Source: a virus. From it: a DNA stretch of 64,000 nucleotides. Below, in pieces: positions 2,089-63,482 of the stretch. Location: the IMG/VR virus record IMGVR_UViG_3300020731_000011, one strand, 5' to 3'. Positions within the stretch are counted from its first letter, which is position 1, and each line of letters begins with the position of its first letter. A model generated the notes under the pieces. That model was not told the DNA's origin, ran no database searches, and worked only from the letters and a program-made list of their open reading frames with translations. The translations under genes and the position numbers were made by a program.

Positions 2089-2667
2089 ATGACACTAAAA
2101 GATTTTATATTAAAGAAAAAAGAAGATGCGAAATTCTGGACTAAGAAAGAAGATCTAGAACTTACACCAGAACAGTTAATGACTATGGTAGATGAACTTA
2201 AACAATGTGAAGAGTTTAAGGACACTGAAATAGAGATTATGAATCTTCCAGTAGCACATATTACTTTAGGAGATAAAATAGATACTATTTCGGCAAAAAC
2301 AATAATACTTCATGAAGGGACTAAATTTGGAAAAAAATGTTATCTGTATAAGATAAGTTTAACTCCAGAATTGTACGAAAAAGATTTTATTAATACAATG
2401 CCTGGATCATATGTAACTCCAGTTATCTATAACCCTGAATCATTTATACCAGAAAAGAAAATAGTGCTAGTATATGATATGGTGGGTCATCAAGATGATA
2501 TAGCATTTGGAAATATTAACTATAGGAAATCGATCCATGATACATTAGATGATATAATAGATAATATGGAAAGTTATGAAAAAGTACCCAATCATAGATG
2601 TATTATAGTAAGAGGTCACTTTGAATATTATTCAGTTCCTAATGAAGCTGAAAAAATAAAAATATAA
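2089..2667 (+). CDS. hypothetical protein
   Basis: 192-aa ORF tightly packed in the operon; no recognised motif. Confidence 0.55.
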   Translation: MTLKDFILKKKEDAKFWTKKEDLELTPEQLMTMVDELKQCEEFKDTEIEIMNLPVAHITLGDKIDTISAKTIILHEGTKFGKKCYLYKISLTPELYEKDFINTMPGSYVTPVIYNPESFIPEKKIVLVYDMVGHQDDIAFGNINYRKSIHDTLDDIIDNMESYEKVPNHRCIIVRGHFEYYSVPNEAEKIKI

Positions 2668-2668
2668 T

Positions 2669-3697
2669 ATGAATAGTAGATATGCAGAAATGATAAATGA
2701 TCTTTCACAAAATAATACACAGACCGTCGACTTAAGCCTGAATTCAAAGGTTTTCATAGTCGACGGTCTTTAACTCAACAACTTTCTAAGATCCTTTGCA
2801 ATGATCCAGCATGTAAATCCAGCAGGGCAGCATATAGGAGCACTAACGGGGTTTCTTAAGTCTATGGCATATGGGATGAGACTAGTAAGACCAACACGTG
2901 TCATAATAGTATTCGATGGTAGAGGTAGTTCTACAAATAAGCGCTACCTCTACCCTGAATACAAAGCCAATCGAGGAGTAAAACGCATTACAAATTGGGA
3001 TATATTTGATTCACAAGATGAAGAATCTGATGCTATTAAAAACCAGCTTCTGAGGCTCATAGACTATCTCAAATGTCTTCCAGTAGATCTACTATCAATA
3101 GACAAGATAGAGGCAGATGATGTCATAGGATATATAGCAAAACATATAGGAAAAGAGGTAACTATTATGTCTTCAGACAGAGATTATCTACAGCTAGCAT
3201 CAGATAGAATAAGTATTTACTCTCCAACAAAGAAAAAATTCTATTCTCCAAAAGACGTCTTAAGTGAGTACGAAGTCACATCTAATAATTTCTTAACTCA
3301 GAAGATACTACTTGGAGACAAGGGCGATAATGTTCCTGGAGTTAAAGGATTAGGTCCTAAGACTTTGTTAAAGCATTTTCCAGAATTAGGAGAATTACGT
3401 ACTATTAATCTAGAGCATATTATAAACAAATGCAAAGATAGTGAAGTACCAATATTGCAAAAGATATACGCTTTTAAAAATCAATTAGAGATCAATAGAC
3501 AATTAATGGATTTAGATGAACCTAATATTCCAGAAGATTCAAAGATTGAAATAGACTCAATGATACAAAATCCTAATAAAGGATATGAACCTGCAATATT
3601 TACTTCTCTATATAATGAAGATCAACTAGGAGCAAGCATTACAAATTTACAATCTTGGTTATATACAAATTTTAACGAAATAGCAAAATACAAATAA
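2669..3697 (+). CDS. 5'-3' exonuclease / FEN (T4 RNase H-like), interrupted by an in-frame TAA at 2771-2773
   Basis: ATG 2669 is in frame with track ORF 2801..3697. Translation gives ...KVFIVDGL*LNNFLRSFAMIQH..., then FDGRG, EYKANR, EADDVI, SSDRD and GDKGDNVPGVKGLGPKT (H3TH) motifs. Confidence 0.85.
2721..2769 (+). other. perfect 12-bp GC-rich inverted repeat abutting the in-frame stop of the FEN gene
   Basis: AGACCGTCGACT (2721-2732) / AGTCGACGGTCT (2758-2769); inner AAGCCT/AGGTTT stem. Confidence 0.9.
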
Positions 3698-44995: not shown

Positions 44996-45081
44996 GGTCA
45001 GGTGGTGCAATTGGTAGACAACTGGTAGATGGGTTCGAATCCATTACAGTAGGTATGTAGGTTCGAATCCTACCCCGACTA
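44996..45081 (+). ncRNA. tRNA-like RNA with the anticodon arm replaced by a second T-arm-like hairpin
   Basis: GGTCAGG/CCCGACT acceptor, Leu-type D-arm TGGTGCAATTGGTAGACA, two GGTTCGAATCC loops. Confidence 0.65.
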
Positions 45082-58925: not shown

Positions 58926-58997
58926 GGACGTGTAGTTTAATTGGAAAAATACTTGCCTTGTAAGCATGAGTCCCCAGGTCAGTTCTGGGTATGTCCT
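58926..58997 (+). tRNA. trnT: tRNA-Thr(TGT), atypical T-loop
   Basis: loop CTTGTAA; T-loop GTCAGTT. Confidence 0.7.
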
Positions 58998-59193: not shown

Positions 59194-59275
59194 GCTCCAG
59201 TGGCGTAATTGGTAGCCGCGTCAGACTTAGGATCTGGTTCCGTAAGGAGTGGGGGTTCGATTCCCTCCTGGAGCA
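59194..59275 (+). tRNA. trnL: tRNA-Leu(TAG)
   Basis: TCAGA-CTTAGGA-TCTGG; long variable arm. Confidence 0.92.
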
Positions 59276-59288
59276 CATTTGTCAATTT

Positions 59289-62756: not shown

Positions 62757-63156
62757 GGGCATGAGATTGGTAATTGATGGCAATGTAGTTCTTTAAAATG
62801 ATGCAGGCAGTGTTAGTATTGGAAACACTTTAATAACCTATATAAAAAATAAATGCAAACGTAGAATTATCTACATGGACTTTCGAGGACGCTATGGCGT
62901 TCGCTGATGGTGAGTTCGCAATGGCGGCTTAGTCCAGTGGGGTCGCATGATACCCTAGAAACAGAAGTGCCTGCAAAAGTGTGAGTGGTTTAAATGATTG
63001 AACACCCAGCATTATAAATACGATGTTTAAATCAGCACTGAATACCACGATAAATAGTGATTTATATATTTTGTCTAGTTAGAAAACGAGAATAAGCTTG
63101 TGAATGAGTTTTATAGGATTAATTGTTAGACTTGGGTTCGAATCCCAACATGTCCA
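62757..63156 (+). ncRNA. ssrA: tmRNA; tag ORF 62855-62932 encodes ANVELSTWTFEDAMAFADGEFAMAA*
   Basis: acceptor GGGCATG/CATGTCC-A with the G3.U70 Ala determinant, T-arm TTGGG-TTCGAAT-CCCAA, ATAAAT-GCA resume context, tag ending AA-stop. Confidence 0.92.
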
Positions 63157-63189
63157 CTATTTTAATAATAAATTAATAAAATAAAATCT

Positions 63190-63409: not shown

Positions 63410-63482
63410 GTTCCTGAGGACAAAATGGTTGAGTCGCTGCCCTTTCAAGGCAGAGGAGTGGGATCGATACCCATCAGGAATA
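63410..63482 (+). tRNA. trnE: tRNA-Glu(TTC)
   Basis: CTGCC-CTTTCAA-GGCAG; T-loop ATCGATA. Confidence 0.85.

Follow-up and report, generated by a model that had tools for sequence, protein, structure and literature searches.

The literature that we searched reports phage bypassing for T4 gene 60 and its homologues only, besides some suggestive cases in Streptomyces phages. In gene 60, a stop codon stands right after the take-off codon, the take-off and landing codons are matched, and pairing in the mRNA leaving the ribosome has been proposed as the driver (Huang 1988; Bonocora 2011; Manning and Atkins 2022, bioRxiv 10.1101/2022.08.31.505936). A free-standing homing endonuclease gene, mobA, lies upstream of this replication gene with its 5' non-coding insert; the cassette is transferred horizontally, and the endonuclease has been lost in some lineages ("hit and run"). 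Hops over a stop codon, in which 9 nucleotides (nt) specify one residue, have been obtained at synthetic sites in Escherichia coli (Weiss, Dunn, Atkins and Gesteland 1987; O'Connor 1989), and the 1987 paper refers to +5 and +6 events in its title. In a 2016 review, Atkins and colleagues stated that no natural in-frame stop-hop was known. The byp elements of Magnusiomyces capitatus mitochondria are short mobile inserts in essential genes that are bypassed in translation (Lang 2014; Nosek 2015). Here we describe a seemingly essential flap endonuclease (FEN) gene of a freshwater phage that is interrupted by an in-frame TAA between two Leu codons, CTT and CTC, for which our search of the literature found no earlier description of a comparable FEN stop-hop cassette. 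The gene lies at positions 2669 to 3697 of a 64,000-nt stretch (the window; 30.8% GC) of IMG/VR record IMGVR_UViG_3300020731_000011, a 75.6-kb phage contig that is ~48% complete. We consider it likely, on comparative grounds, that this gene is decoded by short translational bypassing within a cassette resembling that of gene 60 and mobA.

The reading frame opens at ATG 2669 and runs for 34 codons (2669 to 2773; this and all other features given here are on the plus strand), includes the metal-binding Asp of an IVDG motif on β1, and ends GGT CTT TAA. The proposed take-off codon is CTT (2768 to 2770), the stop is TAA (2771 to 2773), and the proposed landing codon is CTC (2774 to 2776), the native Leu of the DGLNN motif; decoding would resume at AAC 2777, the first codon of the remaining gene (2777 to 3697). 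In the same frame, the stop is followed by CTC AAC AAC TTT CTA AGA TCC TTT GCA ATG, where the ATG at 2801 begins the annotated 298-amino-acid open reading frame (ORF). This is the frame that a first-pass annotation of the window had described, and it is borne out by the sequence. The 5_3_exonuc_N domain (PF02739) is matched over profile positions 1 to 163 with 104 bits only if the stop is read through, and PF01367 scores 38 bits against a cutoff of 40; with both Pfam domains above or near their cutoffs and the catalytic DG Asp in place, the product is predicted to belong to the FEN/5'-3' exonuclease family. Alignment with Taq polymerase, in which the segment spans Taq residues 12 to 19, identifies DG as Asp18-Gly19 and leaves two surplus residues ahead of Arg25, in agreement with the earlier statement that the ORF starting at ATG 2801 lacks the metal-ligand Asp.

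Comparison with relatives indicates that the interruption is an insert. Flavobacterium phage immuto (42% identity) and Microcystis phage Mel-JY01 are the isolates most similar to it; the FEN N termini of both align with the 34-codon piece but have two codons fewer at the stop. In twelve close relatives, the six bases are absent and the sequence is IVDGLNNFLRSF; the first-pass statement that removal of 6 nt restores the FEN motif holds. Uninterrupted relatives have GGR CTC AAC AAC; in carriers, the added CTT TRA lies 5' of the native Leu codon. In the stretch between the stop and ATG 2801, all differences from two other interrupted loci (L012 and L096; L numbers designate the loci compared) are synonymous. 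FEN is single copy in a complete 158-kb relative and is constrained, with a ratio of nonsynonymous to synonymous substitution rates (dN/dS) of 0.05 to 0.1, a value that is uninformative on selection after acquisition of the insert, since the FEN bodies of the carriers diverged before it arrived. A megablast search of the locus against the phage collection returned no match.

The insert is part of a mobile module. Window positions 2665 to 2787 are found with 100% nucleotide identity in three contexts that have unrelated upstream flanks and backbones, and the FEN bodies of the carriers differ at a synonymous divergence (dS) of 1.3 to 2.2, with dN/dS of 0.05 to 0.09; a 102-nt contig piece in run X19 is shared with window positions 2686 to 2787. 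The module occurs in three variants, CTT TAA CTC, CTT TGA CTA, and CTT TGA CTT. Variants A and B differ at twelve positions across 2669 to 2800 and at none within 2722 to 2771 (P = 0.003 for the hairpin segment, which was chosen beforehand); that both variants retain a stop involves one substitution and by itself is weak evidence. We searched for a parental N terminus (MNSRYAEMIN...) without the insert and found none.

Carriers of the insert also differ from noncarriers upstream of FEN. The upstream neighbor is a RecA/UvsX-like recombinase gene (982 to 2079; Pfam RecA, 3e-6). In uninterrupted relatives, uvsX directly abuts FEN, at a distance of 120 to 183 nt in 66 of 69 insertion-less loci, whereas 357 to 1,269 nt separate the two genes in 11 of 11 insertion-bearing loci; extra DNA is thus present in all 11 carriers but in only 3 of the 69 noncarriers. 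This slot holds homing endonuclease genes in sister contigs. In the L096 type, it contains an intact ORF of 332 amino acids that matches NUMOD3 and homing-endonuclease PHROGs and overlaps the FEN ATG with its 3' end; in the L012 type, it contains an HNH homing endonuclease gene (phrog_655 at 2e-34) and retains ~23 nt of the 3' end of the 332-amino-acid ORF; and in L005 and L093, it contains a 71-amino-acid chimera that keeps the C terminus of that ORF. In the window, as in L097, the slot is filled by a 192-amino-acid ORF without a detectable family (2089 to 2667 in the window), for which no match was found in Pfam, PHROG, Atlas, or PDB. Its first 30 amino acids are those fused to the endonuclease C terminus in L005 and L093, and a 43% homologue lies beside an uninterrupted FEN gene in L018. 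Separately, a second NUMOD3-type ORF was noted between FEN and DnaB (L100:2204-2923; also in L012 to L015 and L094, near 4355-4711/4723-5079), so that L012-type phage have endonuclease genes on both sides of FEN.

The 332-amino-acid endonuclease led to a much wider set of interrupted genes. Its homologues were collected at 28 to 53% identity and traced in public assemblies and IMG/VR; 91 loci were fetched, and a FEN junction lay downstream in 57. NUMOD3 was found in 8 of 11 aligned members (best, 9e-8), PF18741 in 8 of 11, and PHROG homing-endonuclease matches reached 8e-13 (phrog_3339); the L096 protein had no sequence match in PDB. The gene is patchily distributed, being carried by few of many otherwise syntenic loci, and from these profile matches the L096-type ORF and its homologues appear to be free-standing homing endonucleases. 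The homologues precede FEN in many distant phages, and most of the 57 FEN genes are interrupted at exactly the same codon.

The DG-motif Gly codon and the Asn codon, normally 3 nt apart, are separated by 8, 9, 10, 14, or 15 nt in 65 loci. These loci fall into 14 junction types, in every one of which a stop directly follows the first codon, as TAA 2771-2773 does in the window; the corresponding hops would be of 5, 6, 7, 11, and 12 nt. The 6-nt junctions read CTT T(A/G)A CTN, with an invariant CTT, TGA as the stop in the L093 and L096 variants, and C, T, A, or G as the third base of the landing codon (one junction has CGG instead). Longer hops of 12 and 11 nt would be needed at CTT TGA AGA AAG CTC and CTT TGA AGAAG CTG, respectively, and one of 7 nt at CTC TAG CGTC. 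Hops of 5 nt would occur at ACC TGA CA, where the landing triplet is ACA (L121), and at three junctions with landing triplets that match at 2 of 3 positions: ACT TAG CT, TTG TAG TG, and CTG TAG TG. The TTG TAG TG junction recurs in 22 loci. Past the landing triplet, the conserved FEN sequence (N-x-F/Y-I/L-R ... VFDG) resumes in the frame set by the gap. A landing triplet with which the tRNA could re-pair, followed by the correct resume codon, can therefore be proposed from CTT to CTC in the window and, with the CGG exception, in its relatives. The first-pass annotation had suggested a natural 6-nt hop from CUU to CUN, and the comparison argues for it through the frame-changing gaps (hops of 5, 7, and 11 nt), for which bypassing is the sole possible decoding, the immediate stops, and the mostly matched landings.

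A hairpin accompanies the interruption. In the window, a two-tier structure (2721 to 2769) has an outer stem of 2721-2732/2758-2769 and an inner stem of 2734-2739/2748-2753, and its 3' arm ends on the take-off codon. As the first-pass annotation had observed, the outer stem is a perfect 12-bp GC-rich inverted repeat (100% complementary) that stands out against the low GC content of the window; it is the most GC-rich perfect repeat of at least 11 bp there. The predicted RNA fold has an energy of -26.4 kcal/mol (z = -5.9 versus shuffles). The arms use GTC and GAC, which serve for only 6% of the Val and 14% of the Asp positions in the window's long ORFs, and are built from module-specific codons, ACC GTC GAC and GTC GAC GGT, where relatives have GAG AAG GAG GAC and GTA GAC GGA.

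All 65 interrupted loci, representing all 14 junction types, have such a hairpin, with energies of -20.8 to -30.1 kcal/mol and a 3' arm that ends at the Gly/take-off codon. The homologous 63 nt of 55 uninterrupted genes, among them five lineages that adjoin endonuclease homologues, gave -3.5 to -14.6 kcal/mol, with no overlap between the two sets. Thus, the hairpin belongs to the interruption and not to the endonuclease gene. In nine aligned sequences, 87% of cells were paired, compared to 18 to 48% with slid partners; 6 of 18 pairs had changed on both sides, a degree of covariation reached in 0 of 500 shuffles, and RNAalifold predicted the same structure from the alignment. Whichever base ends the Gly codon (U, C, or A), its partner is always the first base of an ACC, GCC, or TCC codon ~40 nt upstream. 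The alignment of homologues proposed in the first-pass annotation showed both recurrence of the Leu-stop-Leu junction and covariation in the hairpin. Other functions for the hairpin were considered. A role in endonuclease expression is unlikely, since uninterrupted FEN genes adjacent to endonuclease genes lack it, and a terminator or promoter was rejected, as no terminator-like site was present and promoter-like sites were at chance level. A second perfect inverted repeat of 11 bp inside FEN (2918-2928/2944-2954) is not kept in the L012-type backbone and is probably lineage specific or due to chance.

These observations suggest how the interrupted gene could be decoded. With peptidyl-tRNA-Leu on CUU in the P site and a slowly decoded UAA-C in the A site, termination would be slow and the anticodon could release. 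At this pause, the 5' arm and the inner stem of the hairpin would be outside the ribosome and the 3' arm still inside. As the mRNA slides by 6 nt, each exiting base would permit one more G/C-rich hairpin pair; the computed gain of a 6-nt slide is 4 to 15 kcal/mol, depending on where the mRNA can pair (8 to 12 nt 5' of the P site). This agrees with the driver function suggested for such pairing in gene 60. The tRNA would then re-pair with CUC and decoding would resume at AAC, yielding the normal FEN sequence with the junction peptide VFIVDGLNNFLR. The first-pass annotation had doubted the role of the hairpin, whose 3' arm would lie within the ribosome. Its link to the interruption is now settled by its presence in all interrupted genes and in no uninterrupted one and by its covariation; the manner in which it acts, like the hop and its efficiency, we infer.

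The CTT-TAA insert would, in this model, belong to a mobile cassette composed of a free-standing gene between uvsX and FEN, for a homing endonuclease with NUMOD3 and a restriction-endonuclease-like nuclease domain, and a recoded FEN 5' end, the latter consisting of a stable hairpin of cassette-specific codons, a take-off codon, an immediate stop, and a short gap. The cassette would have moved by recombination into diverged phage backbones, and in the lineage of the window, the endonuclease would later have been replaced by the unrelated ORF. The insert probably serves to disrupt the endonuclease target in the most conserved stretch of FEN and so to protect the site, by analogy with gene 60. 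The first-pass annotation had proposed instead that the interruption is a translational control on the nuclease; the footprint of a homing endonuclease cassette is a more likely origin.

The resemblance to gene 60/mobA extends to the free-standing endonuclease gene upstream of a replication gene with a 5' insert, the stop right after the take-off codon, the matching of the landing codon to the take-off codon, the horizontal transfer of the cassette, and the loss of the endonuclease in some lineages. The hairpin also appears to work in a similar way, in that it is strong, ends at the take-off codon, covaries, and is confined to interrupted genes. However, the host gene is a topoisomerase gene in T4 and a FEN gene here, and the endonuclease is MobA (HNH) in T4 and a NUMOD3- and PF18741-like nuclease here. 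The gap is 50 nt in gene 60 but 2 to 9 nt plus the landing codon here, which is too short for the take-off (A-site) stem-loop on which gene 60 depends. In gene 60, the 5' hairpin is positioned 9 nt from the take-off codon and is not conserved between clades, whereas that of the FEN cassettes abuts the codon, is much stronger, and is strictly conserved. The take-off codon specifies Gly in gene 60 and Leu or Thr in the FEN cassettes. For comparison with the nascent-peptide signal that promotes take-off in the gene 60 system, the N-terminal ORFs of the FEN genes have 31 to 36 codons in most lineages. The FEN cassette is therefore best regarded as an analogue of the gene 60/mobA cassette rather than as a homologous member. 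The synthetic stop-hops were engineered, are low level, and lack a stimulator, while the FEN site is natural, conserved, and provided with a hairpin. The byp elements resemble the FEN inserts in that the match between take-off and landing codons can be imperfect, but they are mitochondrial, GC-cluster-like inserts of 27 to 55 nt with an unused sense codon in the A site and have neither an endonuclease partner nor an upstream hairpin.

The alternative that survives best, though we regard it as improbable, is a tolerated knockout, in which a selfish homing footprint inactivates FEN and the phage relies on host 5' nucleases with no recoding. The module does spread horizontally and is recent in the clade of the window, a gene drive can bear a fitness cost, and T4 rnh is not strictly essential. 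Yet the interrupted arrangement persists to ~30% endonuclease identity, and a dead gene should decay, whereas both parts of FEN are intact and conserved, the stops are retained, the landing triplets are matched, and the hairpin covaries; moreover, FEN is a strongly constrained, single-copy gene in this phage group.

Readthrough, in which a near-cognate tRNA reads UAA or UGA in a weak UAA-C or UGA-C context to give a FEN protein with two extra residues (DGL-x-L-NNFLR), is also unlikely. It is compatible with the gap of the window, which is in frame, and with the C that follows the stop in all CTN junctions; a C after the stop is a poor termination context in E. coli. However, gaps whose length is not a multiple of three rule out readthrough for the genes that contain them, and homologous cassettes with 8-, 10-, and 14-nt gaps could not be decoded in this way. 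In addition, TAA and TGA both occur within the same module, the contig encodes no suppressor tRNA, and the distance from the motif Asp to the Arg is constant in all uninterrupted relatives and in Taq polymerase. Readthrough would be better served by mutation to a sense codon, but a stop is kept in 14 of 14 junction types. A +1 shift at CUU-U was considered as well, since CUU UGA C, the shifty stop of the RF2 (prfB) +1 site, is present in L093, L096, L109, and L114, and the window has CUU UAA C. This shift was rejected: in the +1 frame, a stop is reached after five codons (TTC TAA), and an RF2-like shift would thus give no FEN product.

Termination followed by re-initiation at ATG 2801 would make a truncated FEN of 298 amino acids, possibly complemented by the 34-amino-acid peptide, and we think it very unlikely. 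In the window, an in-frame ATG does lie 27 nt past the stop, and gene callers annotate the 298-amino-acid ORF. The truncated protein would nevertheless lack the β1 metal-binding Asp and the conserved LNNFLRSF, and only synonymous changes are found in the nine codons that separate the stop from the ATG. Conservation of a restart codon was not seen either: several lineages have no ATG downstream of the stop until codon 59 to 93, beyond the second catalytic motif VFDG, so that a restart is not an option for them.

An artefact, a reassigned code, or removal of the six bases from the RNA can hardly be credited: although the window comes from a metagenome assembly, the insert recurs in >20 independent assemblies, genes of the window ordinarily end in TAA, a scan with Rfam found no match at the junction, and to our knowledge no mechanism removes 5 to 12 nt from a bacterial mRNA. 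Identical or variant copies are present in IMG/VR, JGI, ENA, and Logan, and the Leu-stop-Leu junction is found in IMG/VR contigs from other samples and in JGI contigs, one of them of 157 kb. Contigs from four other freshwater runs dated 2012 to 2017 have no indel at the site, which disposes of the assembly error that the first-pass annotation had named as a possible refutation; the frame-changing junctions of the relatives are likewise known from assemblies. The stop at 2771 is the sole internal stop in the window with matched flanking codons and no nearby start, and no suppressor was found by ARAGORN or Rfam among the 17 tRNAs of the window or in the rest of the 75.6-kb contig, which is without tRNA genes. 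The locus thus differs from one with a reassigned stop or suppressor-tRNA decoding.

Several RNA genes of the window may be mentioned in this context. A tRNA-Leu(UAG) gene (59194 to 59276; ARAGORN and Rfam) is a possible decoder of CUN codons. Two tRNAs missed by ARAGORN were found by Rfam, Thr(UGU) at 58926-58997 and Glu(UUC) at 63410-63482, with identities read from the alignments; neither is a suppressor. A tmRNA gene lies beside the tRNA array at 62757-63159 (ARAGORN tag peptide ANVELSTWTFEDAMAFADGEFAMAA; Rfam RF00023, 62 bits) and could matter for ribosomes stalled at the hop site. A tRNA-like RNA at 44996-45081 (Rfam tRNA, 33.5 bits) has a 22-nt insert in place of the anticodon loop; on inspection, no link between it and the hop was found.

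Several points weigh against decoding by a hop. The support comes from comparison of sequences, and unstimulated stop-hops in E. coli are inefficient. At one junction, seen in the single contig L115, the landing triplet is not a Leu codon (CTT TGA CGG), and the TAG classes match the take-off codon at only two of three positions; within the close clade, the use of CTN versus TTR at the landing codon was not significant. With its in-frame gap, the window by itself would also allow readthrough. In the window's clade, the module arrived recently, and its carriers are thus silent on selection after acquisition. Finally, endonuclease homologues lie beside uninterrupted FEN genes in L117, L129, L149 to L157, L163, and L176, and an HNH gene of the L012 type adjoins an uninterrupted FEN gene in L008, so the link between endonuclease and insert, though strong, is not absolute.

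Other loci came to light during the survey. Two degenerate pattern scans gave chance hits that were set aside (L086 and L087, an ordinary gene end; and L095). At L120:2588-2640, a FEN gene beside a 45% endonuclease homologue changes frame at a run of ~10 T residues just after DGTN; this site has neither the hairpin (-12 kcal/mol) nor a stop-hop, and the run could be a slippage site or a sequencing error. In the P0128 context (ENA ERZ27275342), an endonuclease homologue is immediately followed by a 49-amino-acid N-terminal ORF that overlaps the FEN ORF in a different frame, and this locus is probably another frame-changing junction. In two distant relatives (L109:417-2870 and L114:1-2341), an unannotated ORF of 282 to 284 amino acids interrupts RecA/UvsX and leaves two ORFs that match RecA_N; this may be another endonuclease-split gene.

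Taken more broadly, the comparison leads us to favor, with some reserve, a widespread family of homing-endonuclease-borne recoding cassettes in the FEN genes of aquatic phages, in which the hairpin, as it re-forms behind the ribosome, would act as a spring and pull the mRNA 5 to 12 nt forward, past a stop and onto a matched triplet. If so, these genes would provide the first stop-hop found in nature and, next to T4 gene 60, a second bypass system in phages, an independent invention of the same solution. Since gene callers annotate a 34-amino-acid ORF and a truncated nuclease, such recoding is invisible in current databases. If the model is correct, these phages offer more than a dozen natural length and codon variants for dissecting ribosome sliding: with hops of 5, 6, 7, 11, and 12 nt on one architecture, what drives directional mRNA sliding and how much codon-anticodon re-pairing landing needs would both become testable. 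It would also mean that homing endonucleases can repeatedly recruit bypassing, which renders an otherwise inactivating immunity insert harmless.

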